Shown in pieces: positions 6,536 through 27,795 of a stretch of DNA of 64,000 nucleotides. The stretch lies in the NCBI RefSeq assembly GCF_044324785.1, contig NZ_CP172127.1. One strand, 5' to 3'. Position numbers and translations under genes: made by a program. Positions within the stretch are counted from its first letter, which is position 1, and every line of letters begins with the position of its first letter. This DNA comes from Escherichia coli. GTDB lineage: Bacteria; Pseudomonadota; Gammaproteobacteria; Enterobacterales; Enterobacteriaceae. The notes beneath the pieces were generated by a model. It did no database searches, was not told where the DNA came from, and saw nothing but the letters and a program-made list of their open reading frames with translations.

Positions 6536-7930
6536 TTAATCGTGAGCGCCGATTTCGCGCAGTTTACGACCTTTCATCAGATTACGTTCAATATGTTCCA
6601 GCGAAACGTGTTTGGTTTCCGGTACCAGCCACAATGTCAGCAGGATAAACAGTACGTTCAGAGCAGCATACACCCAGAAGGTGTTGGCGTTACCCAGCGT
6701 GTTGAGCATGGTCAGGAACGTTGCGCCAACGATCATGTTGGCAATCCAGTTGGTGGCAGTGGAGCAGGTGATGCCAAAATCGCGGCCTTTCAGCGGCTGA
6801 ATTTCGGAGCACAGTACCCAAATCAGCGGACCGGCACTCATGGCAAAACCGACAATAAACATCAGCAGCATGGCGATGGCGAAATACTGCGCCGACGGAG
6901 AGTGGATACCGATATGCATCATTGTACCGAGTACGCCCATACCAGCAGCCATCACCAGGAAGCCCAGCGTTAGCGTTGGTTTACGTCCCCAGCGGTCAAC
7001 AAGGCCGATTGCGATAAAGGTGGCAAGTACGTTGGTCAGGCCGACAATCACTGTCCCCCACATTTGCTCGGTGGTGTTGGTATAACCCGCCAGTTCGAAG
7101 ATTTTCGGCGCGTAATACATGATGACGTTCATCCCGGTGAATTGCTGCATTACCTGCAATAGTACGCCAAGGAACACCGCGCGGCGGAAGTTGCTATTCT
7201 CTTTAAACAGCGCCCAGCCACTCTGTTTAACCTGCAAACTTTCACGGATTTCATCCAGTTCGCGTTTCGCTTCCGCGCTGGTGTCACGCAGGCGTAGCAG
7301 CACGCGTTCGGCATCAACAAAACGGCGTTTGGCGGCAAACCAACGTGGGCTGTCTGGCAGGAAGAAGACACCAATCAGCAGCAAAATTGCCGGGATGATA
7401 ATCACACCCAGCATCCAGCGCCATGCACCGGTGTAGCTGAAGGCGGTATCAGAAAGATAAGCGCCGAGGATCCCGATAGTGATCATCAACTGATACATCG
7501 AGATCATACTGCCGCGAATTTTTTCCGGCGCAATTTCAGAGAGGTACAGCGGTGCGGTATAAGAGGCCACACCCACTGCCAGCCCCAGCAAAACGCGGGA
7601 AAGAATCAGTACTTCAACGTTTGGCGCAGCAGCAGAGAACAGTGAACCGGCAACAAACAAGATTGCGCCGATCATCAGGCTCTTTTTGCGCCCGAGTTTA
7701 AAGGAGAGCCAGCCGCTGCCCACCGCACCGACTGCCGCACCGAACATCATGGAGCTTACGACCCATTCTTGCGTGTGCGAAGTAATCTGGAATTCATCTG
7801 CAATAAACGGCAGTGCGCCAGCAATTACACCGATATCCAGGCCAAAGAGTAATCCCGCCAGAGCGGCAAGGAAGCAGACGAAAAACGTCATTGCCTTGTT
7901 TGACCGCCCCTGTTTTTTAGCGTCAGGCAT
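6536..7930 (-). CDS. galP: galactose:H+ symporter (MFS)
   Basis: Start at [32 protein letters not shown] (464 aa). Confidence 0.95.
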
Positions 7931-8274
7931 GATGCCCTCCAATATGGTTATTTTTTATTGTGAATTAAGATAGGTGAGTACGACGTAAAAAGATGTGAAG
8001 CAAATCACATCAGTGTAATCGCTTACACTAACATTTATCTTAGTTATGATTTAAGTGCATGAAAATAATTGAGTTATATCATCATAGATTAAACGCTGTT
8101 ATCTGCAATTAAGACTTTACTGAAAAGAAATGTAACAACTGTGAAAACCGAATAATAATATGAAAATATTACAAATCTTTGTCTGGTGTGGTTGGTGTAA
8201 TCGGTTTCAGTAGCGATGATAATTTGCGGTAAAACGTGTTCAGGAAGAATGATGTTATTGTGCGGGCAGCTTTT

Positions 8275-8305
8275 TGCCGGATGCCGCGTGAACGCCTATC
8301 CACCG
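8275..8305. repeat. partial REP-like element
   Basis: gccggatgccgcgtgaacgcctatcc resembles the REP consensus, in the metK-galP gap. Confidence 0.45.
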
Positions 8306-8310
8306 CGGTG

Positions 8311-8343
8311 AGGTAAAAGAAAAAGGCCAGCGCGAGGCTGGCC
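8311..8343 (-). terminator. metK intrinsic terminator
   Basis: Palindrome ggccagc-gcgag-gctggcc; on the reverse strand it is followed by a T-run, about 20 nt past the metK stop. Confidence 0.75.
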
Positions 8344-8365
8344 TTTGAAAGCAGGTGAAGAAAGA

Positions 8366-9520
8366 TTACTTCAGACCGGCAGCATCGCGCAGCAGCTGCG
8401 CTTTGTCGGTTTTTTCCCACGGGAAATGTTCGCGACCAAAGTGACCGTATGCTGCGGTTTCTTTGTAGATCGGGTGCAGCAGATCCAGCATCTGAATCAG
8501 ACCGTATGGACGCAGGTCAAAGAACTCACGTACCAGCAGAGTCAGTTGTTCAGAAGGCACTTTCTCGGTACCGAAAGTTTCCACCATGATAGAGGTCGGT
8601 TCAGCCACGCCGATTGCGTAGGAAACCTGAATTTCACAACGATCGGCCAGGCCAGCAGCAACGATGTTTTTCGCGACATAACGTGCTGCGTACGCTGCGG
8701 AACGGTCCACTTTTGATGGATCTTTACCAGAGAATGCACCACCACCGTGACGTGCCATGCCGCCGTAGGTATCAACGATAATTTTACGACCAGTCAGACC
8801 GCAGTCACCCATCGGGCCACCGATAACAAAACGACCGGTCGGGTTGATGAAGAATTTGGTGGCAGAAGTCAGCCATTCAGCCGGCAGAATCGGCTTGATG
8901 ATCTCTTCCATTACCGCTTCTTGCAGCGATTTCTGGTCGATTTCTTCAGAGTGCTGAGTGGAAAGCACGACAGCATCGATACCAACGATTTTGCCGTCGT
9001 CATACTGGAAAGTCACCTGGCTTTTCGCGTCCGGGCGCAGCCACGGCAGAGTGCCGTTTTTACGCACTTCAGCCTGACGCTGTACCAGACGGTGTGCATA
9101 GGTGATAGGCGCTGGCATCAGCACGTCGGTTTCATTGGTTGCGTAGCCAAACATCAGACCCTGGTCACCCGCGCCCTGTTCCAGCGGATCGGCACGGTCA
9201 ACGCCCTGGTTGATGTCAGGAGACTGTTTGCCGATAGCGCTCAGAACCGCACAGGAGTTAGCGTCAAAGCCCATGTCGGAATGTACATAGCCAATTTCGC
9301 GAACGGTGTTACGGGTGATCTCTTCGATGTCTACCCAGGCGCTGGTGGTGATTTCGCCGCCAACTAAAACCATGCCGGTTTTTACGTAGGTTTCGCAAGC
9401 AACGCGTGCTTTCGGATCCTGTTCGAGGATCGCGTCTAAAACGGCATCAGAGATTTGGTCAGCAATTTTGTCAGGATGCCCTTCAGAGACGGACTCGGAC
9501 GTAAAAAGGTGTTTTGCCAT
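8366..9520 (-). CDS. metK: S-adenosylmethionine synthetase
   Basis: Start at [25 protein letters not shown] (384 aa). Confidence 0.97.
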
Positions 9521-9575
9521 ATTTAATATCACCTAAAGAGAATTTGGTTAGCTCAAACTGTTGTGTGGATTTTCT

Positions 9576-9827
9576 GTGGTAGCGGATCCTACCACGACTC
9601 TGCAGGTTAAAAACACTGGCAGTCTGAGTGTTAATCGGTATGGATGGATTAACATCTGGATGGCTATTTTAGGTCAGTTCTTCACCCAATTTCCACTTTT
9701 TTTTGAATCGTGTCTCATTCTGTTAAAAACGTGGCTGGAAATTTTTCCTGACAATGCTGGCATTCTGCGTATTTATCTTTTGCAATTTTCTGCCATTGTG
9801 GGGTATAAAACGCGGCGCGCGGCTTAA
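9576..9827 (+). CDS. small hypothetical ORF (83 aa from GTG) in the metK-speA divergent region; possibly the K-12 yqgD annotation
   Basis: Open frame only; K-12 annotates an 83-aa y-gene near here; no conservation evidence available. Confidence 0.2.
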
Positions 9828-10039
9828 ATAAAAAGCACACGACGTTTCTTTCGTGTTGCCACTTCCAGCCGGGTTGAAATCAGAGTTTTGGCTTGTGGGT
9901 TCGTCTTAACAGGCGGCCGTGGAGGTGATACGAAATAATGAACCGTTGTCTGCTGCTTAACCTGTCTCACCGTTCTGGTGAAGATTCGTTCCCCGCACTC
10001 TGCATCTCTGCTTTGCATACCTGCCGATGTTATACCCAT
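9824..10039 (-). CDS. yqgC: small hypothetical protein YqgC
   Basis: 71-aa ORF; length and position match the K-12 yqgC annotation between metK and speA. Confidence 0.4.
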
Positions 10040-10096
10040 CTCGGCGCTTCTCAGGATTCAAGAGCTGGTTACAGTTACTGAGGACTGAACAAGGGC

Positions 10097-10120
10097 GCTC
10101 TTGTAAAAACAAGAGTTTTC
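10097..10120 (+). terminator. terminator-like hairpin upstream of yqgB/speA
   Basis: ctcttg-taaaaa-caagag followed by ttttctcgtggtttc. Confidence 0.4.
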
Positions 10121-10174
10121 TCGTGGTTTCGCCGAACTGTCACACTTACGTTCGGTTATGTGCTTAATAATGTT

Positions 10175-10306
10175 ATGAAAAAGAAACCGGTTGCGCAGTT
10201 GGAGCGTCAGCATTCACTGCTGGAAAATCCATGTGCTTATGGGTTGTTATCGCAGTTCCAGGCTGCGATAGTCGTTAACTGTTTTACACTTAATAAAATA
10301 ATTTGA
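10175..10306 (+). CDS. yqgB: small protein YqgB (43 aa) immediately upstream of speA
   Basis: ATG 10175; translation [43 protein letters not shown]; stop 8 nt before the speA ATG. Confidence 0.65.
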
Positions 10307-10314
10307 GGTTCGCT

Positions 10315-12291
10315 ATGTCTGACGACATGTCTATGGGTTTGCCTTCGTCAGCGGGCGAACACGGTGTACTACGCTCCATGCAGGAGGTTGCAATGAGCTC
10401 CCAGGAAGCCAGCAAGATGCTGCGTACTTACAATATTGCCTGGTGGGGCAATAACTACTATGACGTTAACGAGCTGGGCCACATTAGCGTGTGCCCGGAC
10501 CCGGACGTCCCGGAAGCTCGCGTCGATCTCGCGCAGTTAGTGAAAACTCGTGAAGCACAGGGCCAGCGTCTGCCTGCACTGTTCTGTTTCCCACAGATCC
10601 TGCAGCACCGTTTGCGTTCCATTAACGCCGCGTTCAAACGAGCGCGGGAATCCTACGGCTATAACGGCGATTACTTCCTCGTTTATCCGATCAAAGTTAA
10701 CCAGCACCGCCGCGTGATTGAGTCCCTGATTCATTCGGGCGAACCGCTGGGCCTGGAGGCCGGTTCCAAAGCGGAGTTGATGGCGGTGCTGGCACATGCT
10801 GGCATGACCCGTAGCGTCATCGTCTGCAACGGTTATAAGGACCGCGAATATATCCGCCTGGCATTAATTGGCGAGAAGATGGGCCACAAGGTCTATCTGG
10901 TCATTGAGAAGATGTCAGAAATTGCCATTGTGCTGGATGAAGCAGAACGTCTGAATGTCGTTCCTCGTCTGGGCGTGCGTGCACGTCTGGCTTCGCAGGG
11001 CTCGGGTAAATGGCAGTCCTCTGGCGGGGAAAAATCGAAGTTCGGCCTGGCGGCGACTCAGGTACTGCAACTGGTTGAAACGCTGCGTGAAGCCGGGCGT
11101 CTCGACAGCCTGCAACTGCTGCACTTCCACCTCGGTTCGCAGATGGCGAATATTCGCGATATCGCGACAGGCGTTCGTGAATCCGCGCGTTTCTATGTTG
11201 AGCTGCACAAGCTGGGCGTCAATATTCAGTGCTTCGACGTCGGCGGCGGTCTGGGCGTGGACTATGAAGGCACCCGTTCGCAGTCCGACTGTTCGGTGAA
11301 CTACGGCCTCAATGAATACGCCAACAACATCATCTGGGCGATTGGTGATGCGTGTGAAGAAAATGGTCTGCCGCATCCGACGGTAATCACCGAATCGGGT
11401 CGTGCGGTGACTGCGCATCACACCGTGCTGGTGTCGAATATCATCGGCGTGGAACGTAACGAATACACGGTGCCGACCGCGCCTGCAGAAGACGCACCGC
11501 GCGCCCTGCAAAGCATGTGGGAAACCTGGCAGGAGATGCACGAACCGGGAACTCGCCGTTCTCTGCGTGAATGGTTACACGACAGCCAGATGGATCTGCA
11601 CGATATTCATATCGGCTACTCTTCCGGCACCTTTAGCCTGCAAGAACGCGCATGGGCTGAGCAGCTTTATTTGAGCATGTGCCATGAAGTGCAAAAGCAG
11701 CTGGATCCGCAAAACCGTGCTCATCGTCCGATTATCGACGAGCTGCAGGAACGTATGGCGGACAAAATGTACGTCAACTTCTCGCTGTTCCAGTCGATGC
11801 CGGATGCGTGGGGGATCGACCAGTTGTTCCCGGTTCTGCCGCTGGAAGGGCTGGATCAAGTGCCGGAACGCCGCGCTGTGCTGCTGGATATTACCTGTGA
11901 CTCTGACGGTGCTATTGATCACTATATTGATGGTGATGGTATTGCCACGACAATGCCAATGCCGGAGTACGATCCAGAGAATCCGCCGATGCTCGGTTTC
12001 TTCATGGTCGGCGCATATCAGGAGATCCTCGGCAACATGCACAACCTGTTCGGTGATACCGAAGCGGTTGACGTGTTCGTCTTCCCTGACGGCAGCGTAG
12101 AAGTAGAACTGTCTGACGAAGGCGATACCGTGGCGGATATGCTGCAATATGTACAGCTCGATCCGAAAACGTTGTTAACCCAGTTCCGTGATCAAGTGAA
12201 GAAAACCGATCTTGATGCTGAACTGCAACAACAGTTCCTTGAAGAGTTCGAGGCAGGTTTGTACGGTTATACCTATCTTGAAGATGAATAA
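10315..12291 (+). CDS. speA: biosynthetic arginine decarboxylase
   Basis: Start at [49 protein letters not shown] (658 aa). Confidence 0.96.
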
Positions 12292-15307: not shown

Positions 15308-17299
15308 ATGTCCTCACGTAAAGAGCTTGCCAATGCTATTCGTGCGCTGAGCATGGACGCAGTACAGAAAGCCAAATCCGGTCACCCGGGTGCCCCTATG
15401 GGTATGGCTGACATTGCCGAAGTCCTGTGGCGTGATTTCCTGAAACACAACCCGCAGAATCCGTCCTGGGCTGACCGTGACCGCTTCGTGCTGTCCAACG
15501 GCCACGGCTCCATGCTGATCTACAGCCTGCTGCACCTCACCGGTTACGATCTGCCGATGGAAGAACTGAAAAACTTCCGTCAGCTGCACTCTAAAACTCC
15601 GGGTCACCCGGAAGTGGGTTACACCGCTGGTGTGGAAACCACTACTGGTCCGCTGGGTCAGGGTATTGCCAACGCAGTCGGTATGGCGATTGCAGAAAAA
15701 ACGCTGGCGGCGCAGTTTAACCGTCCGGGCCACGACATTGTCGACCACTACACCTACGCCTTCATGGGCGACGGCTGCATGATGGAAGGCATCTCCCACG
15801 AGGTTTGCTCTCTGGCGGGTACGCTGAAGCTGGGTAAACTGATTGCGTTCTACGATGACAACGGTATCTCTATCGATGGTCACGTTGAAGGCTGGTTTAC
15901 TGACGACACCGCAATGCGTTTCGAAGCTTACGGCTGGCACGTTATTCGCGGCATCGACGGTCATGACGCGGCATCCATCAAACGCGCAGTAGAAGAAGCG
16001 CGCGCAGTGACTGACAAACCGTCCCTGCTGATGTGCAAAACCATCATCGGTTTCGGTTCACCGAACAAAGCCGGTACGCACGACTCCCACGGTGCGCCGC
16101 TGGGCGACGCTGAAATCGCCCTGACCCGCGAACAGCTGGGCTGGAAATATGCACCGTTCGAAATCCCGTCTGAAATCTATGCTCAGTGGGATGCGAAAGA
16201 AGCAGGCCAGGCGAAAGAATCCGCATGGAACGAGAAATTCGCAGCTTACGCGAAAGCTTATCCGCAGGAAGCCGCTGAATTTACCCGCCGTATGAAAGGC
16301 GAAATGCCGTCTGACTTCGACGCTAAAGCGAAAGAGTTCATCGCTAAACTGCAGGCTAACCCGGCGAAAATCGCCAGCCGTAAAGCGTCTCAGAATGCGA
16401 TTGAAGCGTTCGGTCCGCTGTTGCCGGAATTCCTCGGCGGCTCTGCTGACCTGGCACCGTCTAACCTGACCCTGTGGTCTGGTTCTAAAGCAATCAACGA
16501 AGATGCTGCGGGTAACTACATCCACTACGGTGTTCGCGAGTTCGGTATGACCGCGATTGCTAACGGTATCTCCCTGCACGGTGGCTTCCTGCCGTACACC
16601 TCCACCTTCCTGATGTTCGTGGAATACGCACGTAACGCCGTACGTATGGCTGCGCTGATGAAACAGCGTCAGGTGATGGTTTACACCCACGACTCCATCG
16701 GTCTGGGCGAAGATGGCCCGACTCACCAGCCGGTAGAGCAGGTTGCTTCTCTGCGCGTGACCCCGAACATGTCTACATGGCGTCCATGTGACCAGGTTGA
16801 ATCTGCAGTGGCATGGAAATACGGTGTTGAGCGTCAGGACGGCCCGACTGCGCTTATCCTCTCCCGTCAGAACCTGGCGCAGCAGGAGCGTACTGAAGAG
16901 CAGCTGGCAAACATCGCGCGCGGTGGTTATGTGCTGAAAGACTGTGCCGGTCAGCCGGAACTGATCTTCATCGCGACCGGTTCGGAAGTTGAACTGGCGG
17001 TTGCCGCCTACGAAAAACTGACTGCCGAAGGCGTGAAGGCGCGCGTGGTTTCCATGCCGTCTACCGACGCATTCGACAAGCAGGATGCGGCTTACCGTGA
17101 ATCCGTACTGCCGAAAGCGGTTACTGCACGCGTTGCGGTGGAAGCTGGCATTGCTGACTACTGGTACAAGTATGTTGGCCTGAACGGTGCTATCGTCGGC
17201 ATGACCACCTTCGGTGAGTCTGCCCCGGCAGAACTGCTGTTTGAAGAGTTCGGCTTCACCGTTGACAACGTTGTTGCGAAAGCAAAAGAACTGCTGTAA
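15308..17299 (+). CDS. tktA: transketolase 1
   Basis: Start at [35 protein letters not shown] (663 aa). Confidence 0.97.
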
Positions 17300-17321
17300 T
17301 CGGTAAGATGCTTTGTGAGAA

Positions 17322-17346
17322 GGGCCGCGAAAGCGGCCCTTTTTTT
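17322..17346 (+). terminator. tktA intrinsic terminator
   Basis: gggccgcgaaagcggccc followed by ttttttt; overlaps the stop codon of the convergent SPFH gene. Confidence 0.85.
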
Positions 17347-18253
17347 ACTTAGTAGAGATAAACGGAACTGTACTGCCGGGGATCATGGTATCGGGTAGCT
17401 TACCGTCCCAACGCTCAGCAGTGGTGAGGGCAACAAGTCCGGGATTATCCCGCAGAGCTTCACCGCGCAGGCGGATCGCTTCTGCTTCAGCCGCACTTTT
17501 TAAACGAATAGTTTCAGCCTCTGCCGCGCCTCTTACGCGAATAGTCTCAGCTTCTGCTTTGGCTGCCGCCAGTTTACTGTCTGCTTCTGCCTGGGCCTGA
17601 GTTACCGCTATTTGCGCCTGGATTTTCTCTGTTTCCAGATTTTGCTTACGCGTGGCAATGGCGACTTCTGCTTTCATTCGGTCTTCAATCGACTTTTCAT
17701 AAGCGTCAGAAAAATCAATATTTTCAATCTGGACCCCGTCAATTACCACTGGCCCAACAACGGCTTTGCGCATGGCATTTTGCAGATCCTGAACCAGTTT
17801 TGTACGATCCTGTACCGCGCTGATGGCGGTATATTGGCCGAAAACGTTCTCCAGTTGAGTTGGCAACTGACGGACAATCAGACGATCTTTTAATGCTTCA
17901 ATGGTGTTGTAGGTGGTATAAACCGCGCCTGCTTCTGAAGGTTTAATGTGGAAGCTGACTGATACTGTCATTTGTGCCGGTTGCTGGTCGCGGCTGTAGG
18001 CCTGTAATCCCTGATAGACCACAGCCTGATTACGCGTGGAAATTTTCTCCACGCTTTCCATAAACGGGATCTTAAAACCCAGACCCGGCTCGGCAACTTT
18101 TACGATTTTTCCGTAGCGCAGCAAAATGCCGCGTTCACCTTCATTAACGGTGTAATACGAGAGAAATGGCAGCACAACCACGGCAAGCACGCCAATGGCG
18201 ATAGCAAGAGATTTTTGTGGGCGAAATGAGGTTAATGAAACAGGTGCTTTCAT
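17345..18253 (-). CDS. SPFH/band-7 (prohibitin/HflC-like) membrane protein, 302 aa; not recalled at this locus in K-12
   Basis: Start taken at MKAPVSLTSFRPQKSLAIAIGVLAVVVLPFL, preceded by aaggaag; N-terminal TM helix, SPFH-like core, Ala/Glu-rich C-terminal repeats. Confidence 0.75.
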   Translation of the reverse strand: MKAPVSLTSFRPQKSLAIAIGVLAVVVLPFLSYYTVNEGERGILLRYGKIVKVAEPGLGFKIPFMESVEKISTRNQAVVYQGLQAYSRDQQPAQMTVSVSFHIKPSEAGAVYTTYNTIEALKDRLIVRQLPTQLENVFGQYTAISAVQDRTKLVQDLQNAMRKAVVGPVVIDGVQIENIDFSDAYEKSIEDRMKAEVAIATRKQNLETEKIQAQIAVTQAQAEADSKLAAAKAEAETIRVRGAAEAETIRLKSAAEAEAIRLRGEALRDNPGLVALTTAERWDGKLPDTMIPGSTVPFISTK

Positions 18254-18629
18254 ATGAATCTTCCTTGAGTAAAGTGGGGAATATGTCACATGAGGTAAGG
18301 AGAAAATAGCCGACAGGTGAGAATTCAGAATCTATAAAGGGGTATAGCGAAAAAACGTTGCATTAAAAAAGTATGTTTTCGGATATTCAATAAATAAATG
18401 GCGATATGCATCACAAATACAATAACTAACAAAATGTTGATTTTGTGATAAACATAACAAATACAAAGTTGACTTTAAAAATATCAATTTCATATTGTTG
18501 TTATTTAAGGTTTTATTATTTTGGTTTATGGGGTTTTTCTTCTCGCGTACCCAATTGCTTTCATTAAACCGCACGAGTATTTTATTTTTACCGCCGGACG
18601 GTACCCTAAAAATAAAATAAGGATAATTT

Positions 18630-19073
18630 ATGCGGCTTAGTGATTATTTTCCAGAATCATCAATCTCAGTTATACATTCAGCAAAAGATTGGCAGGAAGC
18701 TATCGATTTCTCGATGGCATCATTGCTGGATAAAAACTATATCAGCGAGAATTACATTCAGGCAATTAAAGATTCCACCATTAACAATGGCCCTTATTAT
18801 ATTCTCGCGCCAGGTGTGGCAATGCCTCATGCGCGACCGGAATGTGGGGCGCTTAAAACCGGGATGTCTTTGACGTTACTTAAACAAGGCGTTTATTTTC
18901 CGGGGAATGACGAACCGATTAAATTACTCATCGGGCTTTCTGCTGCCGATGCCGATTCGCACATTGGCGCTATTCAGGCGTTAAGTGAATTACTGTGCGA
19001 AGAAGAAATACTCGAACAACTCTTAACAGCATCATCAGAAAAACAATTAGCGGACATTATCAGCTGCGGATAA
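18630..19073 (+). CDS. cmtB: cryptic mannitol-type PTS enzyme IIA
   Basis: 147-aa ORF MRLSDYFPESSISVIHSAKDWQEAIDF... Confidence 0.9.
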   Translation: MRLSDYFPESSISVIHSAKDWQEAIDFSMASLLDKNYISENYIQAIKDSTINNGPYYILAPGVAMPHARPECGALKTGMSLTLLKQGVYFPGNDEPIKLLIGLSAADADSHIGAIQALSELLCEEEILEQLLTASSEKQLADIISCG

Positions 19074-19100
19074 TGACTCTCTCCTCTACAGGATAATATT

Positions 19101-20489
19101 ATGGAAAACAAGTCTGCTCGTGCAAAGGTCCAGGCTTTTGGGGGCTTTTTGACGGCAATGGTCATCCCCAATATCGGTGCTTTTATTGCCTGGGGTTTTA
19201 TTACTGCATTATTTATTCCTACTGGTTGGCTGCCGAATGAACATTTCGCCAAAATTGTCGGCCCGATGATTACCTATTTATTGCCCGTGATGATTGGTTC
19301 TACCGGTGGTCATCTGGTCGGCGGTAAACGCGGCGCGGTCATGGGCGGAATTGGTACGATTGGTGTGATCGTCGGCGCAGAGATCCCGATGTTCCTTGGC
19401 TCAATGATTATGGGGCCGCTCGGTGGGCTGGTCATAAAATATGTCGATAAGGCACTGGAAAAACGCATACCTGCTGGTTTTGAGATGGTTATCAATAACT
19501 TCTCATTAGGTATCGCGGGGATGCTCCTTTGTCTGCTGGGTTTTGAAGTGATCGGCCCGGCGGTGTTAATTGCCAATACTTTCGTCAAAGAGTGTATTGA
19601 GGCGCTGGTACATGCGGGTTATCTGCCTCTGCTGTCAGTCATCAATGAACCGGCGAAAGTGCTTTTCCTTAATAATGCGATCGATCAGGGCGTCTATTAT
19701 CCGCTGGGAATGCAACAGGCTTCGGTTAACGGTAAATCCATCTTCTTTATGGTGGCCTCTAACCCAGGTCCGGGCCTGGGGCTGCTGCTGGCGTTTACCT
19801 TGTTTGGTAAAGGGATGAGTAAACGTTCTGCGCCCGGGGCGATGATTATTCACTTCCTCGGTGGGATCCACGAACTGTATTTCCCATATGTGCTGATGAA
19901 GCCGCTGACTATTATTGCCATGATTGCGGGCGGTATGTCTGGCACCTGGATGTTTAACTTACTGGACGGTGGTCTGGTGGCTGGCCCAAGTCCGGGGTCT
20001 ATCTTTGCTTACCTGGCGCTGACGCCGAAAGGTTCGTTCCTGGCGACAATTGCCGGTGTTACGGTAGGTACCCTGGTGTCCTTTGCTATCACTTCGCTGA
20101 TACTGAAGATGGAAAAAACGGTGGAAACGGAGAGCGAAGATGAGTTTGCTCAGTCAGCCAATGCGGTTAAGGCGATGAAACAAGAGGGTGCATTCTCGTT
20201 AAGCCGGGTTAAGCGTATCGCCTTTGTTTGCGATGCGGGGATGGGCTCCAGCGCGATGGGCGCAACCACCTTCCGTAAACGTCTGGAAAAAGCGGGGCTG
20301 GCAATTGAAGTAAAACATTACGCGATAGAAAACGTGCCTGCGGATGCGGATATCGTTGTTACTCATGCCAGTCTGGAAGGGCGCGTGAAACGTGTGACGG
20401 ATAAACCGCTGATACTGATTAATAACTATATTGGCGATCCAAAACTCGACACTTTATTTAATCAATTAACCGCCGAACATAAAAACTGA
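19101..20489 (+). CDS. cmtA: cryptic mannitol-type PTS enzyme IICB
   Basis: 462-aa polytopic membrane ORF following cmtB. Confidence 0.9.
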   Translation: MENKSARAKVQAFGGFLTAMVIPNIGAFIAWGFITALFIPTGWLPNEHFAKIVGPMITYLLPVMIGSTGGHLVGGKRGAVMGGIGTIGVIVGAEIPMFLGSMIMGPLGGLVIKYVDKALEKRIPAGFEMVINNFSLGIAGMLLCLLGFEVIGPAVLIANTFVKECIEALVHAGYLPLLSVINEPAKVLFLNNAIDQGVYYPLGMQQASVNGKSIFFMVASNPGPGLGLLLAFTLFGKGMSKRSAPGAMIIHFLGGIHELYFPYVLMKPLTIIAMIAGGMSGTWMFNLLDGGLVAGPSPGSIFAYLALTPKGSFLATIAGVTVGTLVSFAITSLILKMEKTVETESEDEFAQSANAVKAMKQEGAFSLSRVKRIAFVCDAGMGSSAMGATTFRKRLEKAGLAIEVKHYAIENVPADADIVVTHASLEGRVKRVTDKPLILINNYIGDPKLDTLFNQLTAEHKN

Positions 20490-20503
20490 TTGCCGAGGTA
20501 AAA

Positions 20504-21781
20504 ATGAAAACCAAAGTTGCTGCTATTTATGGCAAGCGGGATGTCCGTCTGCGCGAATTTGAACTGCCAGAAATTACCGATAATGAACTGTTAGTGAGTG
20601 TGATTTCTGACAGCGTCTGTTTATCGACCTGGAAAGCGGCGTTACTCGGTAGTGAACATAAACGCGTACCCGACGATTTAGAAAATCATCCGGTCATTAC
20701 CGGGCATGAATGTGCCGGGGTTATTGTTGAAGTGGGTAAAAATCTCGCTGGCAAATATAAAAAAGGCCAGCGTTTTGTATTGCAACCGGCGATGGGGTTA
20801 CCAAGCGGATATTCAGCGGGCTACAGCTACGAATATTTTGGCGGTAACGCCACCTATATGATTATTCCCGAAATCGCCATTAATTTGGGCTGCGTATTAC
20901 CGTATCACGGCTCTTATTTTGCTGCGGCGTCGCTGGCAGAGCCTATGTGCTGCATTATTGGCGCTTATCATGCCAATTATCACACCACGCAATATGTTTA
21001 TGAGCATCGCATGGGCGTTAAACCTGGCGGCAATATTGCGCTGCTGGCATGTGCTGGTCCGATGGGCATTGGCGCTATCGATTACGCCATTAACGGCGGC
21101 ATACAACCGTCGCGAGTGGTGGTGGTCGATATCGACGACAAACGCCTGGCGCAGGTAGAGAAGCTGCTGCCGGTGGAACTGGCGGCCAGTAAAGGCATTG
21201 AGCTGGTGTATGTGAATACCAAAGGGATGAGCGATCCGGTCCAGACGCTGCGGGCGCTGACGGATGATGCCGGATTTGATGACGTATTTGTCTATGCAGC
21301 GGTGCCTTCAGTCGTCGAGATGGCTGATGAATTACTGGCGGAAGATGGCTGCCTGAACTTCTTTGCCGGGCCGACGGATAAAAACTTCAAAGTGCCGTTT
21401 AATTTCTACAACGTCCATTACAACAGCACGCATGTCGTCGGTACGTCCGGCGGTTCAACGGACGACATGAAAGAGGCGATTGCGCTTAGCGCCACAGGGC
21501 AGTTGCAGCCGTCGTTTATGGTGACCCATATCGGTGGGCTGGATGCGGTGCCTGATACCGTGCTCAATCTGCCGGATATCCCCGGCGGTAAAAAACTCAT
21601 TTATAACGGCGTCACCATGCCGCTCACTGCCATTGCCGATTTTGCCGAAAAAGGCAAAACCGATCCGCTGTTTAAAGAGCTGGCGCGGCTGGTTGAGGAA
21701 ACGCACGGCATCTGGAATGAGCAGGCCGAGAAATATCTGCTGGCGCAATTTGGCGTTGATATCGGGGAGGCCGCACAATGA
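20504..21781 (+). CDS. yggP: zinc-type alcohol/polyol dehydrogenase family protein YggP
   Basis: 425-aa ORF MKTKVAAIYGKRDVRLREFELPEI... Confidence 0.88.
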   Translation: MKTKVAAIYGKRDVRLREFELPEITDNELLVSVISDSVCLSTWKAALLGSEHKRVPDDLENHPVITGHECAGVIVEVGKNLAGKYKKGQRFVLQPAMGLPSGYSAGYSYEYFGGNATYMIIPEIAINLGCVLPYHGSYFAAASLAEPMCCIIGAYHANYHTTQYVYEHRMGVKPGGNIALLACAGPMGIGAIDYAINGGIQPSRVVVVDIDDKRLAQVEKLLPVELAASKGIELVYVNTKGMSDPVQTLRALTDDAGFDDVFVYAAVPSVVEMADELLAEDGCLNFFAGPTDKNFKVPFNFYNVHYNSTHVVGTSGGSTDDMKEAIALSATGQLQPSFMVTHIGGLDAVPDTVLNLPDIPGGKKLIYNGVTMPLTAIADFAEKGKTDPLFKELARLVEETHGIWNEQAEKYLLAQFGVDIGEAAQ

Positions 21782-22743
21782 TGTCCCTGGCGTGGCCATT
21801 ATTTCGCGTTACGGAACAGGCAGCGTTGGCTGCCTGGCCGCAAACCGGATGTGGCGACAAAAATAAAATTGATGGCCTGGCGGTCACCGCGATGCGCCAG
21901 GCATTAAACGACGTCGCTTTTCGTGGGCGAGTGGTTATCGGCGAGGGAGAGATTGACCATGCGCCGATGCTGTGGATTGGCGAAGAGGTGGGCAAAGGCG
22001 ATGGGCCAGAAGTCGATATCGCGGTTGACCCGATTGAAGGTACGCGGATGGTGGCGATGGGGCAGAGCAATGCGCTGGCGGTCATGGCTTTCGCCCCTCG
22101 AGATAGCCTGTTACACGCGCCCGATATGTATATGAAAAAACTGGTTGTTAATCGGCTGGCGGCGGGCGCGATTGATCTGTCCATGCCTCTGGCGGACAAC
22201 TTGCGCAACGTGGCGAAAGCGTTAGGCAAACCGCTGGACAAGCTGCGTATGGTTACGCTGGATAAACCGCGCCTGAGTGCCGCAATTGAGGAAGCAACAC
22301 AGCTGGGCGTGAAGGTTTTTGCCCTGCCGGATGGCGATGTCGCCGCCAGCGTGCTGACCTGCTGGCAGGATAATCCTTACGATGTGATGTACACCATCGG
22401 CGGTGCGCCAGAAGGCGTGATTTCTGCCTGTGCCGTTAAAGCATTAGGCGGGGATATGCAGGCCGAGCTGATTGACTTTTGTCAGGCTAAAGGGGATTAC
22501 ACGGAAAATCGGCAGATTGCAGAGCAGGAGCGCAAGCGTTGCAAGGAAATGGGCGTTGACGTTAACCGTGTGTACTCGCTCGATGAACTGGTGAGGGGGA
22601 ACGATATCCTCTTTAGCGCTACGGGCGTGACGGGCGGCGAGCTAGTGAACGGTATCCAACAGACGGCGAATGGGGTGCGGACGCAGACATTACTGATCGG
22701 CGGCGCGGACCAAACGTGTAATATAATAGACTCCCTGCATTGA
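21778..22743 (+). CDS. yggF: class II fructose-1,6-bisphosphatase (GlpX family)
   Basis: 321-aa ORF MMSLAWPLFRVTEQAALAAWPQTGCGDKNKIDGLAVTAM...; ATGA overlap with yggP stop. Confidence 0.92.
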   Translation: MMSLAWPLFRVTEQAALAAWPQTGCGDKNKIDGLAVTAMRQALNDVAFRGRVVIGEGEIDHAPMLWIGEEVGKGDGPEVDIAVDPIEGTRMVAMGQSNALAVMAFAPRDSLLHAPDMYMKKLVVNRLAAGAIDLSMPLADNLRNVAKALGKPLDKLRMVTLDKPRLSAAIEEATQLGVKVFALPDGDVAASVLTCWQDNPYDVMYTIGGAPEGVISACAVKALGGDMQAELIDFCQAKGDYTENRQIAEQERKRCKEMGVDVNRVYSLDELVRGNDILFSATGVTGGELVNGIQQTANGVRTQTLLIGGADQTCNIIDSLH

Positions 22744-22764
22744 TGGTGATCTATCGGAAGACCA

Positions 22765-23274
22765 ATGGCGACGCTGACAGAAGATGATGTGCTTGAGCAA
22801 CTGGATGCACAGGACAATTTATTTTCATTTATGAAAACTGCGCATTCTATTTTGCTCCAGGGGATACGCCAGTTTCTGCCGTCGCTGTTTGTCGATAATG
22901 ATGAAGAGATCGTCGAATATGCAGTGAAGCCGTTACTCGCCCAAAGCGGCCCGCTTGACGATATTGATGTTGCACTGCGTTTGATTTACGCGCTGGGGAA
23001 AATGGATAAATGGTTGTACGCCGATATCACGCATTTTTCCCAGTTTTGGCATTACCTGAACGAACAGGATGAAACGCCCGGATTTGCCGATGATATAACC
23101 TGGGATTTTATCAGCAACGTCAATAGCATAATCCGCAATGCGAGTCTCTATGACGCGTTGAAAGCGATGAAATTCGCCGATTTCGCCGTCTGGTCAGAGG
23201 CGCGTTTTAGCGGGATGGTCAAAACGGCGCTGACGCTGGCAGTAACGACCACCTTAAAGGAATTAACGCCGTGA
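22765..23274 (+). CDS. yggD: MtlR-like protein YggD (also named FumE)
   Basis: 169-aa ORF MATLTEDDVLEQLDAQDNLFSFMKTAHSILLQ... Confidence 0.88.
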   Translation: MATLTEDDVLEQLDAQDNLFSFMKTAHSILLQGIRQFLPSLFVDNDEEIVEYAVKPLLAQSGPLDDIDVALRLIYALGKMDKWLYADITHFSQFWHYLNEQDETPGFADDITWDFISNVNSIIRNASLYDALKAMKFADFAVWSEARFSGMVKTALTLAVTTTLKELTP

Positions 23275-23984
23275 AAATCGAACTGACGGTGAATGGACTA
23301 AAGGTACAGGCGCAGTACTCTGATGATGAAATTGAAAATGTACATAAACCGCTACTGCGTATGCTGGCGGCCTTACAGACGGTAAATCCGCAGCGGCGTA
23401 CGGTGGTTTTTCTTTGCGCTCCGCCGGGGACGGGTAAATCTACCCTAACCACCTTCTGGGAATATCTCGCGCAACAAGACCCGGAACTACCCGCTATTCA
23501 GACACTCCCGATGGATGGTTTTCACCATTACAATAGCTGGCTGGATGCGCATCAATTGCGCCCCTTCAAAGGCGCACCAGAGACATTTGACGTTGCGAAA
23601 CTGGCGGAAAATCTGCGCCAGGTCGTGGAAGGGGATTGTACGTGGCCGCAGTACGATCGACAAAAGCATGATCCTGTTGAAGATGCGTTGCACGTTACCG
23701 CACCACTCGTCATCGTCGAAGGAAACTGGCTATTACTGGATGATGAAAAGTGGCAGGAGTTGGCATCTTTCTGCGATTTTTCTATTTTTATTCATGCACC
23801 TGCTCAAATTCTGCGGGAGCGCTTGATTAGTCGTAAAATTGCGGGAGGATTATCGCGGCAAGAAGCCGAAGCTTTTTATGCCCGAACCGATGGTCCCAAT
23901 GTCGAGCGTGTGCTGGTGAATAGTCGTCAGGCCAATCTGATATTAGAGATGACCGAAGAAGGCAGATATCACTTCAAAAGCTGA
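23271..23984 (+). CDS. yggC: P-loop kinase-like protein YggC
   Basis: 237-aa ORF with Walker A PPGTGKST; overlaps yggD stop. Confidence 0.88.
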   Translation: MKIELTVNGLKVQAQYSDDEIENVHKPLLRMLAALQTVNPQRRTVVFLCAPPGTGKSTLTTFWEYLAQQDPELPAIQTLPMDGFHHYNSWLDAHQLRPFKGAPETFDVAKLAENLRQVVEGDCTWPQYDRQKHDPVEDALHVTAPLVIVEGNWLLLDDEKWQELASFCDFSIFIHAPAQILRERLISRKIAGGLSRQEAEAFYARTDGPNVERVLVNSRQANLILEMTEEGRYHFKS

Positions 23985-24131
23985 CAATTTATTCCAGTTA
24001 TTGCAGGGGTATTATCACGCCAGCCTGGAATAAAGCCCCCTACAAAAGGGGATAAAAGTGTGACGTAAGTCAGATAAATGTCTTCTTCGGCTGGACAATC
24101 ATTCCTTTTATTCCACGTTTCGCTTATCCTA

Positions 24132-24148
24132 GCTGAAGCGTTTCAGTC
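24132..24148. promoter_or_regulatory. candidate Cra (FruR) operator upstream of epd
   Basis: gctgaagcgtttcagtc is a near-palindrome resembling the Cra half-sites GCTGAA / TTCAGC, about 120 nt upstream of epd. Confidence 0.5.
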
Positions 24149-24268
24149 GATTAAATGTTCGACAATTAACCAATCAGTCGCAGTTTGCGACAGGTAAGGT
24201 TTCCCCGGACGATTTGCTGGATTACTCTGTCTGGCAAATTTGCTCAGGGAAAACCTTGCAGGAGATCT

Positions 24269-25288
24269 ATGACCGTACGCGTAGCGATAAATGGCTTCGG
24301 TCGCATCGGGCGTAATGTGGTTCGTGCTTTGTATGAATCCGGACGCCGGGCGGAAATTACCGTGGTGGCAATCAACGAACTGGCGGATGCTGCGGGCATG
24401 GCGCATTTGTTGAAATATGACACCAGCCATGGCCGTTTTGCATGGGAAGTACGACAGGAACGCGATCAACTTTTTGTTGGTGATGACGCCATCCGCGTAT
24501 TGCATGAACGTTCACTGCAATCGCTCCCCTGGCGTGAACTTGGCGTTGATGTAGTCCTCGACTGCACCGGCGTATATGGCTCCCGCGAGCATGGCGAAGC
24601 GCATATTGCCGCCGGGGCTAAAAAAGTGCTCTTTTCACATCCTGGCAGTAACGATCTCGACGCGACCGTTGTTTATGGCGTCAATCAGGATCAACTTCGT
24701 GCGGAACACCGCATCGTTTCTAACGCTTCCTGTACCACGAATTGCATAATTCCCGTCATCAAATTGTTAGATGATGCGTACGGTATTGAGTCTGGCACTG
24801 TGACCACAATTCACTCCGCCATGCATGATCAACAGGTTATTGATGCATACCATCCTGACCTGCGTCGCACTCGGGCAGCCAGTCAGTCGATCATTCCGGT
24901 CGATACTAAACTGGCCGCCGGTATCACACGATTTTTTCCGCAATTTAACGATCGCTTTGAAGCGATTGCGGTACGTGTGCCAACCATAAATGTGACGGCA
25001 ATCGATTTAAGCGTGACGGTGAAGAAACCTGTAAAAGCCAATGAAGTCAACCTGTTGCTGCAAAAAGCAGCACAAGGTGCATTTCATGGTATAGTTGACT
25101 ATACGGAATTGCCGTTGGTCTCTGTAGATTTTAACCACGATCCGCACAGTGCCATTGTCGATGGCACCCAAACCCGGGTCAGTGGCGCACACCTGATCAA
25201 AACGTTGGTCTGGTGCGATAACGAATGGGGCTTTGCTAACCGAATGCTCGACACGACGTTAGCTATGGCTACTGTTGCTTTCAGGTAA
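24269..25288 (+). CDS. epd: erythrose-4-phosphate dehydrogenase
   Basis: Start at [21 protein letters not shown] (339 aa). Confidence 0.95.
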
Positions 25289-25337
25289 GACGCAAGCAGC
25301 GTCTGCAAAACTTTTAGAATCAACGAGAGGATTCACC

Positions 25338-26501
25338 ATGTCTGTAATTAAGATGACCGATCTGGATCTTGCTGGGAAACGTGTATTTATCCGTGCGGAT
25401 CTGAACGTACCAGTAAAAGACGGGAAAGTAACCAGCGACGCGCGTATCCGTGCTTCTCTGCCGACCATCGAACTGGCCCTGAAACAAGGCGCAAAAGTGA
25501 TGGTAACTTCCCACCTGGGTCGTCCTACCGAAGGCGAGTACAACGAAGAATTCTCTCTGCTGCCGGTTGTTAACTACCTGAAAGACAAACTGTCTAACCC
25601 GGTTCGTTTGGTTAAAGATTACCTCGACGGCGTTGACGTTGCTGAAGGTGAACTGGTTGTTCTGGAAAACGTTCGCTTCAACAAAGGCGAGAAGAAAGAC
25701 GACGAAACTCTGTCCAAAAAATACGCTGCACTGTGTGACGTGTTCGTAATGGACGCATTCGGTACTGCTCACCGCGCGCAGGCTTCTACTCACGGTATCG
25801 GTAAATTTGCTGATGTTGCGTGCGCAGGCCCGCTGCTGGCAGCTGAACTGGACGCGCTGGGTAAAGCACTGAAAGAACCTGCTCGCCCGATGGTGGCTAT
25901 CGTTGGTGGTTCTAAAGTATCTACCAAACTGACCGTTCTGGACTCCCTGTCTAAAATCGCTGACCAGCTGATTGTTGGTGGTGGTATTGCTAACACCTTT
26001 ATCGCGGCACAAGGCCACGATGTGGGTAAATCCCTGTACGAAGCTGATCTGGTTGACGAAGCAAAACGTCTGCTGACCACCTGCAACATCCCGGTTCCGT
26101 CTGATGTTCGTGTAGCAACTGAGTTCTCTGAAACTGCACCGGCTACCCTGAAATCTGTTAACGATGTGAAAGCTGACGAGCAGATCCTGGATATCGGTGA
26201 TGCTTCCGCTCAGGAACTGGCTGAAATCCTGAAGAATGCGAAAACCATTCTGTGGAACGGTCCGGTTGGCGTGTTCGAATTCCCGAACTTCCGCAAAGGT
26301 ACTGAAATCGTGGCTAACGCTATCGCAGACAGCGAAGCGTTCTCCATCGCTGGCGGCGGCGACACTCTGGCAGCAATCGACCTGTTCGGCATTGCTGACA
26401 AAATCTCCTACATCTCCACTGGCGGCGGCGCATTCCTCGAATTCGTGGAAGGTAAAGTACTGCCTGCAGTAGCGATGCTCGAAGAGCGCGCTAAGAAGTA
26501 A
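25338..26501 (+). CDS. pgk: phosphoglycerate kinase
   Basis: Start at [26 protein letters not shown] (387 aa). Confidence 0.97.
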
Positions 26502-26511
26502 AAAATCACAG

Positions 26512-26545
26512 GGCAGGGAAACCTGCCCTTGTTTCAGCGCGCTTT
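26512..26545 (+). terminator. hairpin between pgk and fbaA (partial terminator/attenuator)
   Basis: agggcagg-gaaa-cctgccct followed by tgtttc. Confidence 0.5.
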
Positions 26546-26715
26546 TAGAGCACGCAATTTTTCATACTCTAAATAATTCGAGTTGCAGGAAGGCGACAAG
26601 AGAGTGAATCCCCAGGAGCTTACATAAGTAAGTGACTGGGGTGAGCGAACGCAGACGCAGCACATGCAACTTGAAGTATGACGAGTATAAGGCCCGACGA
26701 TACAGGACAAGAGAC

Positions 26716-27795
26716 ATGTCTAAGATTTTTGATTTCGTAAAACCTGGCGTAATCACTGGTGATGACGTACAGAAAGTTTTCCAGGTAGCAAAAGAAAACA
26801 ACTTCGCACTGCCAGCAGTAAACTGCGTCGGTACTGACTCCATCAACGCCGTGCTGGAAACCGCTGCTAAAGTTAAAGCGCCGGTTATCGTTCAGTTCTC
26901 CAACGGTGGTGCTTCCTTTATCGCTGGTAAAGGCGTGAAATCTGACGTTCCGCAGGGTGCTGCTATCCTGGGCGCGATCTCTGGTGCGCATCACGTTCAC
27001 CAGATGGCTGAACATTATGGTGTTCCGGTTATCCTGCACACCGACCACTGCGCGAAGAAACTGCTGCCGTGGATCGACGGTCTGCTGGACGCGGGTGAAA
27101 AACACTTCGCAGCTACCGGCAAGCCGCTGTTCTCTTCTCACATGATCGACCTGTCAGAAGAATCTCTGCAAGAGAACATCGAAATCTGCTCTAAATACCT
27201 GGAGCGCATGTCCAAAATCGGCATGACTCTGGAAATCGAACTGGGTTGCACCGGTGGTGAAGAAGACGGCGTAGACAACAGCCACATGGACGCTTCTGCA
27301 CTGTACACCCAGCCGGAAGACGTTGATTACGCATACACCGAGCTGAGCAAAATCAGCCCGCGTTTCACCATCGCTGCGTCCTTCGGTAACGTACACGGTG
27401 TTTACAAGCCGGGTAACGTGGTTCTGACTCCGACCATCCTGCGTGATTCTCAGGAATATGTTTCTAAGAAACACAACCTGCCGCACAACAGCCTGAACTT
27501 CGTATTCCACGGTGGTTCCGGTTCTACTGCTCAGGAAATCAAAGACTCCGTAAGCTACGGCGTAGTGAAAATGAACATCGATACCGATACCCAATGGGCA
27601 ACCTGGGAAGGCGTTCTGAACTACTACAAAGAAAACGAAGCTTACTTGCAAGGCCAGCTGGGCAACCCGAAAGGCGAAGATCAGCCGAACAAGAAATACT
27701 ACGATCCGCGCGTATGGCTGCGTGCCGGTCAGACTTCGATGATCGCTCGTCTGGAAAAAGCATTCCAGGAACTGAACGCGATCGACGTTCTGTAA
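26716..27795 (+). CDS. fbaA: class II fructose-bisphosphate aldolase
   Basis: Start at MSKIFDFVKPGVITGDDVQKVFQVAKENNFALPAVN (359 aa). Confidence 0.97.
   Translation: MSKIFDFVKPGVITGDDVQKVFQVAKENNFALPAVNCVGTDSINAVLETAAKVKAPVIVQFSNGGASFIAGKGVKSDVPQGAAILGAISGAHHVHQMAEHYGVPVILHTDHCAKKLLPWIDGLLDAGEKHFAATGKPLFSSHMIDLSEESLQENIEICSKYLERMSKIGMTLEIELGCTGGEEDGVDNSHMDASALYTQPEDVDYAYTELSKISPRFTIAASFGNVHGVYKPGNVVLTPTILRDSQEYVSKKHNLPHNSLNFVFHGGSGSTAQEIKDSVSYGVVKMNIDTDTQWATWEGVLNYYKENEAYLQGQLGNPKGEDQPNKKYYDPRVWLRAGQTSMIARLEKAFQELNAIDVL

Follow-up and report, generated by a model that had tools for sequence, protein, structure and literature searches.

The stretch of Escherichia coli DNA analysed here (64,000 nucleotides (nt) of contig NZ_CP172127.1, hereafter the window) carries at positions 18630-23984 six co-directional genes on the plus strand, cmtB-cmtA-yggP-yggF-yggD-yggC, which had been described from the sequence as a cryptic sugar-alcohol cluster. 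The list of open reading frames (ORFs) for positions 16000-27000 reproduces the span, the strand and the six genes exactly, and the gene names, protein families and operon-like layout of the original prediction were borne out by NCBIfam, Pfam and RefSeq. The ORF list, NCBIfam and Pfam together identify cmtB (18630-19073) as the gene for a phosphotransferase system (PTS) enzyme IIA of the mannitol/fructose class, cmtA (19101-20489) as that for a PTS enzyme IICB of the mannitol family, yggP (20504-21781) as that for a predicted zinc-dependent medium-chain dehydrogenase of a SorE-like subfamily, and yggF (21778-22743) as that for a paralogue of the class II (GlpX-type) fructose-1,6-bisphosphatase (FBPase). 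They are followed by yggD (fumE; 22765-23274), encoding a protein of the MtlR fold (ORF list and Pfam), and by yggC (23271-23984), which starts with GTG and is predicted to encode a P-loop small-molecule kinase with the fold of FrcK, pantothenate kinase (PanK) and uridine kinase (ORF list and NCBIfam). We propose, with moderate confidence, that the six genes together make up a single unit, activated by CRP, for the catabolism of a mannitol-like polyol.

The genes are closely packed. Reading of the sequence gave gaps of 27 nt between cmtB and cmtA, 14 nt between cmtA and yggP, and 21 nt between yggF and yggD, as well as two overlaps of 4 nt. Both overlaps had been described as a shared ATGA, which holds for yggP/yggF; that of yggD/yggC is GTGA because the start codon of yggC is GTG. 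This start codon is GTG in all checked copies from Escherichia, Citrobacter, Salmonella and Klebsiella, and ATG in Yersinia and Rahnella. Inside the block, promoter-like matches (12, compared with 10.3 in shuffled sequence) and terminator-like matches (8, compared with 8.9) occur at chance level.

The block is the known cmtB-cmtA-yggP-yggF-yggD-yggC locus of E. coli, and the locus itself is not new. The RefSeq annotation of the nearest genome has the same six genes with identical boundaries, under the names cmtB, cmtA, yggP, glpX, fumE and yggC. The flanking genes are tktA upstream and epd-pgk-fbaA downstream; in E. coli K-12 (b2934-b2928), the gene order, the gene lengths and these flanks are all as in the window. 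By megablast, the region was found in 5425 of 5426 complete E. coli genomes, and at least 80% of the six-gene block was covered in 5388 of them at 95-99% identity. Since most E. coli copies are 95-97% identical to the window (98.8% at best), the window comes from a somewhat divergent lineage.

Conservation of the gene block

An alignment of YggP was used to scan one genome per species, and the window proteins were then mapped onto the 80 loci obtained; two of these are interrupted by contig ends, leaving 78 evaluable loci. Four layouts were observed. The order cmtB-cmtA-yggP-yggF-yggD-yggC is shared by 46 enterobacterial species, and five Rahnella species and Budvicia keep the same order without yggF. 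In 18 Vibrionaceae, cmtB-cmtA-yggP-yggD-yggC is followed by a gene for a YcdX-type PHP-domain phosphatase. The fourth layout, IIA-yggC-IICB-yggP, occurs in eight Clostridia/Lachnospiraceae with a PRD regulator before or after it, and with neither yggD nor a phosphatase. Of the 78 evaluable loci, 77 have IIA, IICB, YggP and YggC together; the remaining one is a seemingly degraded copy in Vibrio maritimus, in which cmtA escaped detection at half length and yggC is broken in two.

The surroundings of the cluster vary more than its content. In Hafnia, the six genes lie between men (menaquinone biosynthesis) genes rather than between tktA and epd, and the genes flanking the Clostridia clusters are unrelated from locus to locus. 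This relocation and these unrelated flanks indicate that the block is a mobile functional unit with a four-gene core. Co-directionality, tight junctions and a gene order kept across distant taxa likewise point to an operon or single functional unit. Chance is not a plausible explanation for the layout because the gene order recurs in dozens of species. The pairwise ratios of nonsynonymous to synonymous substitution rates were 0.01-0.19 for all six genes in comparisons with E. coli B, E. albertii, Citrobacter and Salmonella, comparable with those of tktA and epd. Given this purifying selection on all six genes, the word "cryptic", a label taken from the literature, should not be taken to mean decaying.

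We regard it as highly improbable that the genes are merely unrelated neighbours with independent transcription, YggD serving as a minor fumarase, YggF as an FBPase of general function and cmtAB as a duplicate of mtlA in decay. This view can appeal to the RefSeq name fumarase E and to papers that treat FumE as a minor fumarase (PMC8464067, PMC8801760), to the listing of yggF as a separate CRP target in genomic systematic evolution of ligands by exponential enrichment (SELEX; PMC3105977), and to a sigma-54 binding site that was mapped within K-12 yggP by chromatin immunoprecipitation (ChIP)-seq (PMC4591121). The window has a sigma-54-type site inside yggP, CTGGCGGCAATATTGCG (21024-21040, plus strand), which differs from the K-12 ChIP-seq site by one mismatch, and an internal transcription start is possible there. 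Against this view stand the gene order kept across three bacterial lineages, the relocation of the cluster as a block, the purifying selection on all six genes, the overlapping junctions and the lack of a fumarase domain in YggD. Independent transcription with unrelated functions, which the original prediction had named as the finding that would overturn it, did not emerge, as the block moves as a unit among genomic contexts and phyla. The idea of unrelated neighbours is thus already disfavoured.

Protein families and a candidate pathway

CmtB matched NF007358 with 323 bits (cut-off 192) and PF00359 with an E-value of 4.7e-30, and the histidine of its phosphorylation-site motif, VAMPHA, aligns with the IAVPHG histidine of the IIA domain of MtlA. 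CmtA scored 480 with TIGR00851, the model of the mannitol-family IIC (cut-off 468.4), and matched PF02378 and PF02302; the active-site cysteine motif of its IIB domain, CDAGMGSSAMGA, is conserved. These matches place CmtB in the mannitol/fructose class of PTS IIA proteins and CmtA in the mannitol family of PTS IICB proteins. Because CmtA shares 52% identity with the IIC-IIB portion of a Rahnella MtlA (E-value 7e-156), the imported compound is probably a mannitol-like polyol. The original prediction had called the substrate not firmly established, and rightly so: the literature searched on cmtA, cmtB, yggP, yggF, yggC and yggD contained no paper that assigns one to the cmt-ygg cluster.

YggP contains ADH_N (PF08240) and ADH_zinc_N (PF00107) domains above cut-off. 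The residues C39, H68, E69 and E146 and the motif G185-x-x-G188-x-G190 are invariant in 12 sequences from three lineages; from knowledge of the medium-chain dehydrogenase/reductase (MDR) family, we take the former to be zinc ligands and the latter to belong to the NAD-binding (Rossmann) fold. By domains and motifs, YggP thus belongs to the zinc-dependent MDR enzymes, and it is very well conserved among E. coli, Vibrio and Clostridia (64-68% identity). In BLASTP, its similarity to SorE, the L-sorbose-1-phosphate reductase of the Klebsiella sor operon, extends over the full length, including the C-terminal extension (46% identity, 417 aligned columns, E-value 6e-131). A tblastn search of plasmid records with YggP retrieved two genes annotated as SorE, together with homologues from Lactiplantibacillus, at 42-45%, the enzyme of the Lactiplantibacillus sor operon being 42% identical, and other medium-chain dehydrogenases at no more than 29%; GatD-type enzymes share about 25% identity with YggP.

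The Klebsiella SorE used for comparison sits in a complete sorC-sorD-PTS(man)-sorE operon, and the Lactiplantibacillus match also lies in a sor operon. The sor-type association was not found for YggP, which in all 80 loci stands beside a mannitol-family PTS, with no short-chain dehydrogenase/reductase (SDR). For this reason, YggP is a sister subfamily of SorE rather than SorE itself. As SorE interconverts ketose 1-phosphate and hexitol 6-phosphate, which is established knowledge and also described in PMC12817954, it acts on the phosphate-adjacent carbon.

The SorE-like character of YggP could also be read in the direction of sorbose catabolism. CmtAB would then import a ketose and phosphorylate its C1, YggP would reduce the product to a hexitol phosphate just like SorE, and MtlD or SrlD of the host would finish the route. 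Mannitol- and fructose-family enzymes II are related, and those of the fructose family phosphorylate C1. We nevertheless judge this ketose route improbable, because none of the 80 loci has the SorD-type second dehydrogenase that both genuine sor operons possess, because CmtA scores above the mannitol-family IIC cut-off, and because the invariant kinase YggC would be left without a role.

YggC scored 507 with NF006742 (cut-off 402), whose NCBIfam name is "nucleoside/nucleotide kinase family protein". The Walker A motif APPGxGKS/T, the motifs DGFH and EGNW and the lid motif RLxxRK are invariant in 23 sequences. An AlphaFold2 (AF2) model (predicted local distance difference test (pLDDT) 95.6) was searched with Foldseek, which returned 3c8u, annotated as the putative kinase of a fructose transport system, as the best match, then PanK and UCK2, with E-values from 3e-18 to 1e-10. 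This FrcK-like protein is the nearest solved relative, with 31% identity and a template modelling score of 0.76-0.87. The fold neighbours after 3c8u are pantothenate, uridine-cytidine and phosphoribulo-kinases, whose targets are in every case primary hydroxyls on small molecules. PF00485 is not significant for E. coli YggC and is on record for the Aliivibrio orthologue. Motifs and modelled fold together place YggC among the P-loop kinases of the PanK/uridine kinase/phosphoribulokinase type.

A profile search with YggC retrieved about 410 cluster representatives at an E-value of 1e-30 or better. As of 2023, no member of the FrcK/YggC kinase family had a known substrate (PMC10433430); yggC was earlier predicted to encode a sugar or polyol kinase, with an experimental test then in progress (PMC3223725). 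In the set P0212, P0219 and P0166, two metagenomic YggC-like sequences are fused to a PfkB-family sugar kinase and one to a HAD sugar phosphatase of the Cof type. The PfkB domains of these fusions did not match any specific sugar-kinase model, and the contigs carrying the PfkB-YggC and HAD-YggC fusion genes are short or uninformative as to genomic context. Such fusions would fit a role of YggC in sugar-phosphate metabolism beside a second kinase or a phosphatase. Other fusions (with a methyltransferase, GNAT, an alpha/beta-hydrolase or 5-formyltetrahydrofolate cyclo-ligase) are heterogeneous and may be gene-calling artefacts.

Two of the alternatives turn on YggC. The cluster could be a mannitol operon in all but name, in which YggP, like MtlD or GatD, would oxidise the far end of the molecule and deliver a ketose 6-phosphate into glycolysis, whereas YggC, as a nucleoside-type kinase, and YggF, as a spare gluconeogenic FBPase, would be housekeeping passengers. 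The layout does resemble mtlA-mtlD-mtlR, given the 52% identity of CmtA to MtlA and the MtlR fold of YggD; the NCBIfam name of YggC speaks only of nucleosides and nucleotides, and loss of YggF has a mild phenotype on glycerol (PMC8719807). However, a kinase that 77 of the 78 evaluable loci contain, and that lies between IIA and IICB in Clostridia, does not behave like a passenger, and YggP is far nearer to the phosphate-adjacent enzyme SorE than to GatD-type enzymes. We therefore consider this arrangement rather unlikely.

Alternatively, YggC might phosphorylate, or modulate in some other way, the transporter or the regulator instead of a metabolite, so that the cluster would mainly signal the presence of the polyol. 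This idea draws on FrcK of Sinorhizobium, whose mutants take up about 50% less fructose and show de-repressed mannitol transport, and for which an effect on transporter activity was suggested (PMC10433430). It also draws on the yggD/yggC overlap in Escherichia and several other Enterobacterales, by which the two genes would be translationally coupled. We assign little probability to such a transport-control module, as the fold and the invariant residues of YggC are those of small-molecule kinases, Clostridia retain YggC without YggD, and the dehydrogenase and the phosphatase in the block argue for metabolic flux.

YggF scored 585 with TIGR00330 (cut-off 259) and aligns over its full length with the structure of E. 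coli GlpX (1ni9), with the conserved acidic and catalytic motifs GEGEID, DPIEGT, PDGDV and GGAPEG kept; by profile and motifs it belongs to the class II FBPases. Its FBPase activity has been published and is less efficient than that of Fbp (Brown 2009, as cited in PMC8719807 and PMC10733421). The gene is absent from the five Rahnella species and Budvicia, and in the 18 Vibrionaceae loci its slot is taken by the PHP-domain phosphatase (NF006702). In three Clostridia loci from two organisms, a gene for a reversible pyrophosphate (PPi)-dependent phosphofructokinase adjoins the cluster. YggF is thus dispensable over part of the range of the cluster.

YggD matched PF05068 (MtlR) with an E-value of 4.6e-52. 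Among PDB entries, it matched 3c8g, a "Putative transcriptional regulator" (7e-109), 6kcr, the MtlR-HPr complex (3e-12), and 3brj (2e-8), and it is 30% identical to Rahnella MtlR. Profile and structural similarity thus assign YggD to the MtlR family. RefSeq names the protein fumarase E, which reportedly goes back to a published activity screen (Sevin, 2017); in Pfam and NCBIfam, only MtlR models were matched, and membership of a fumarase family was not found. In all proteobacterial clusters yggD lies immediately upstream of yggC, which it overlaps in the Escherichia group. The Clostridia clusters have, in place of yggD, a regulator of about 680 residues with the architecture HTH-Mga-PRD-PRD-EIIA2, which is the same exchange as that between the mannitol operons of proteobacteria and of Gram-positive bacteria. 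Because a PRD-type regulator replaces YggD in Clostridia, we consider YggD more likely to be a regulator than the fumarase of its RefSeq name.

Taken together, these families suggest the following catabolic route. CmtB and CmtA would import the polyol and phosphorylate its terminal hydroxyl, and YggP would then oxidise the phosphate-adjacent carbon to give a ketose 1-phosphate; in the simplest case, mannitol 1-phosphate would become fructose 1-phosphate. YggC would phosphorylate the other end, yielding a ketose 1,6-bisphosphate (or 1,7-bisphosphate), in the simplest case fructose 1,6-bisphosphate. This would either be cleaved by a housekeeping aldolase or lose its 1-phosphate to YggF, the latter providing hexose 6-phosphate in the manner of GlpX within the glycerol regulon. 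As the core and a regulator make up the whole Clostridia cluster, the product of the PTS, YggP and YggC should be a common metabolite, and one phosphate from the PTS plus one from the kinase points to a bisphosphate. YggF, the PHP enzyme of Vibrio and the PPi-phosphofructokinase of Clostridia could each convert a bisphosphate to a 6-phosphate, whether as a true step of the route or for the supply of hexose phosphate. YggD, which lacks its own DNA-binding domain, would be the negative regulator specific to this pathway and would probably act through CRP and PTS partners, like MtlR.

Several points weigh against this catabolic route. We infer its steps from protein families, and can only guess at the order in which YggP and YggC react and at which polyol is used. 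E. coli already has a direct conversion of mannitol 1-phosphate to fructose 6-phosphate, and FruK handles fructose 1-phosphate, so that a mannitol route through fructose 1-phosphate looks redundant. The AF2 model of YggP, built from the 12-sequence alignment, was too poor for inspection of the active site (pLDDT 57.6). Rahnella, Budvicia and Clostridia have no dedicated phosphatase, and YggF may be only an accessory. FrcK of Sinorhizobium, the sole relative of YggC to have been studied, is not a fructokinase, its authors suggesting the above effect on the transporter (PMC10433430). Lastly, YggD bound no DNA in ChIP-exo, in a paper that describes it as "verified as fumarase E" (PMC8464067), and another paper also reports it as a fumarase (PMC8801760). 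Of the earlier description of YggD as an MtlR-like regulator, the family is secured by PF05068 and the function gains from the Clostridia exchange, whereas the RefSeq name and the ChIP-exo result speak against the function; the fumarase activity that has been reported may be a secondary one. A 2026 paper (PMC13421365) states in its title that MtlR itself works by CRP-dependent DNA anchoring and by membrane sequestration. If YggD acted in this manner, its silence in ChIP under non-inducing conditions and the tandem CRP sites upstream of cmtB would make sense.

A further step, which we put forward only tentatively and regard as doubtful, is that the cluster encodes a PTS route that has not been described: oxidation next to the phosphate, phosphorylation by a kinase of the FrcK/YggC family and removal of the first phosphate, perhaps acting on a sugar alcohol outside the standard panels. 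Such a route would in effect move a phosphate from one end of a sugar to the other. The substrate may be a heptitol such as volemitol, leading to sedoheptulose 1,7-bisphosphate, and this would account for the presence, next to the cluster across lineages, of genes for transketolase, transaldolase, class II aldolase, erythrose-4-phosphate dehydrogenase or PPi-phosphofructokinase.

Transketolase genes or fragments adjacent to the cluster were noted at seven loci (L061, L075, L078, L082, L077, L086, L049), apart from the upstream transketolase gene of Enterobacteriaceae. A tal-tkt pair lies upstream in Vibrio hepatarius, Photobacterium sanctipauli and a Vibrionaceae metagenome-assembled genome; tkt begins 16 nt past the PHP gene in V. 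mediterranei; in Rahnella laticis, yggC is followed by a class II aldolase gene and by tkt; and tkt fragments follow the PHP gene in two Vibrionaceae loci. This adjacency could reflect a transketolase-related product, for instance sedoheptulose 1,7-bisphosphate from a heptitol, or equally be a trace of transfer and of integration through recombination at tkt. We rejected it as proof of function, since the tkt relics beside the Vibrio clusters fit integration at tkt equally well. In the five Rahnella species, the cmt-type cluster lies 1.4-3.4 kb upstream of mtlA-mtlD-mtlR on the same strand; in the one of these loci that was scanned for it, the intervening ORF is a DsbA/ScsC-like thioredoxin gene.

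Regulatory features and flanking DNA

Pattern search upstream of cmtB found two CRP-like sites. Site 1, GGCGATATGCATCACA (18400-18415), is weak, with two mismatches to TGTGAN6TCACA, and site 2, TGTGATAAACATAACA (18444-18459), has one mismatch and is centred 44 bp downstream of site 1. They are followed on the plus strand by a promoter-like sequence, a consensus match only, with -35 TTGACT and -10 CATATT/TATTGT (18469-18498). An alignment of the region from 18 species has two conserved CRP-type sites and a conserved -35 block (ATTGAC/ATTGC), and at the position of site 1 Limnobaculum, Lelliottia and Serratia have CRP sites of full consensus. The 32 CRP-like matches across the window are not above chance (26.6 expected), so that the support for the two sites comes from conservation and from published data. 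CRP binds at cmtB in genomic SELEX, and the activity of the cmtB promoter is lower in a crp mutant (Shimada 2011, PMC3105977); the predicted sites agree with this published CRP dependence. A GntR/UTRA regulator gene upstream of clusters of the Vibrio harveyi clade was rejected as a general regulator, as it occurs in 3 loci only.

The leader of cmtB contains a perfect inverted repeat of 13 nt, TATTTTATTTTTA / TAAAAATAAAATA (18578-18619, plus strand), which consists of A and T only, has extra ACC/GGT pairs and ends just 5' of the Shine-Dalgarno sequence AAGGA. It is conserved in Escherichia, Citrobacter, Salmonella and Klebsiella. The 80 nt before the cmtB start codon are identical to those of an E. 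coli B-type strain, and the sequence further upstream is strongly different. The RNA fold of the repeat was not better than that of shuffled sequence (z -1.27), and the cross-species alignment contains no compensatory changes. The repeat may be an operator or a leader hairpin. An Rfam scan of positions 17000-25000 gave only a sub-threshold match at chance level, in the terminator region of tktA, and neither a riboswitch nor a known leader RNA. The G+C content follows a strong gradient, from 0.33-0.41 in the promoter region and cmtB (18250-19000) to 0.55-0.58 in yggF (21500-22750). An A+T-rich 5' end is of the type silenced by nucleoid proteins, and we infer only that this might contribute to the "cryptic" behaviour.

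Between tktA and cmtB, the window has an SPFH/Band 7 "prohibitin family" gene on the minus strand (17345-18253), which is missing from K-12- and B-type strains. With this gene present, the intergenic region upstream of cmtB is a divergent one; the gene also stands in place of the K-12-type sequence after the tktA terminator. It is likewise present in E. coli strain G5, E. albertii, E. whittamii and Escherichia sp. MOD1-EC7003. On the other side of the block, many E. coli strains have a five-gene minus-strand island between yggC and epd, encoding the S and T components of an ECF transporter, two ATPases and a PPC-domain protein (for example 7905-10981 of locus L002). The window (23985-24268) is without this island and has a G+C hairpin 3' of yggC (24036-24052), whose T-run is on the minus strand; it is a candidate, rather than a known, stop for cmt transcription on the plus strand. 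A further CRP-like site with one mismatch, TGTGACGTAAGTCAGA (24059-24074), lies upstream of epd and fits the known CRP control of fbaA and pgk (PMC3105977).

Two E. coli matches to the block lie on plasmids. NZ_CP137739.1, an E. coli record of 187 kb typed as a plasmid, carries yggP and a glpX-like gene at 98% identity. The plasmid copies could be mobilised chromosomal DNA or reflect an assembly problem.

Significance and comparison with known systems

Few sugar-type PTS systems of E. coli K-12 still lack an assigned substrate, and the cmt-ygg cluster is among them; it is nearly universal in the species and under selection. Identification of the substrate would close a gap in the most thoroughly studied metabolic map of any bacterium, give the widespread FrcK/YggC family its first function, and might decide between a regulator and a fumarase for YggD. 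For the locus itself, nothing new comes from the window; what is new here is a comparative argument that narrows the chemistry to a model testable by assays.

Among known systems, the mtlA-mtlD-mtlR operon of Gammaproteobacteria shares with the cmt-ygg cluster a mannitol-family PTS permease, an MtlR-fold protein and CRP dependence. The cmt-ygg cluster differs in having a separate IIA, a SorE-like zinc enzyme instead of MtlD, and an added kinase and bisphosphatase. The sor operon provides the closest relative of YggP, SorE, but it combines this enzyme with a mannose-family PTS, a second (SDR) dehydrogenase and the regulator SorC, has no kinase or phosphatase, and likely uses its enzyme in the direction opposite to that of YggP.

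The fruBKA operon would share the logic of the proposed route, as judged from the established fructose pathway: a ketose 1-phosphate derived from the PTS is phosphorylated to the 1,6-bisphosphate. However, FruK is a kinase of the PfkB family, whereas YggC has a P-loop fold of the PanK/uridine kinase type, and fructose 1-phosphate arises directly from transport in fruBKA, whereas it would arise by oxidation in the cmt-ygg route. The glpFKX operon also has a class II FBPase inside a catabolic operon; YggF and GlpX align over their full length, and both are CRP targets (PMC3105977). Yet YggF is a distinct paralogue, described in PMC8719807 as less efficient than Fbp, and dispensable in part of the range of the cluster. 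Finally, FrcK, encoded by frcBCAK of Sinorhizobium, is related to YggC and likewise encoded beside a fructose/polyol transporter, but it accompanies an ABC transporter, whereas YggC accompanies a PTS.

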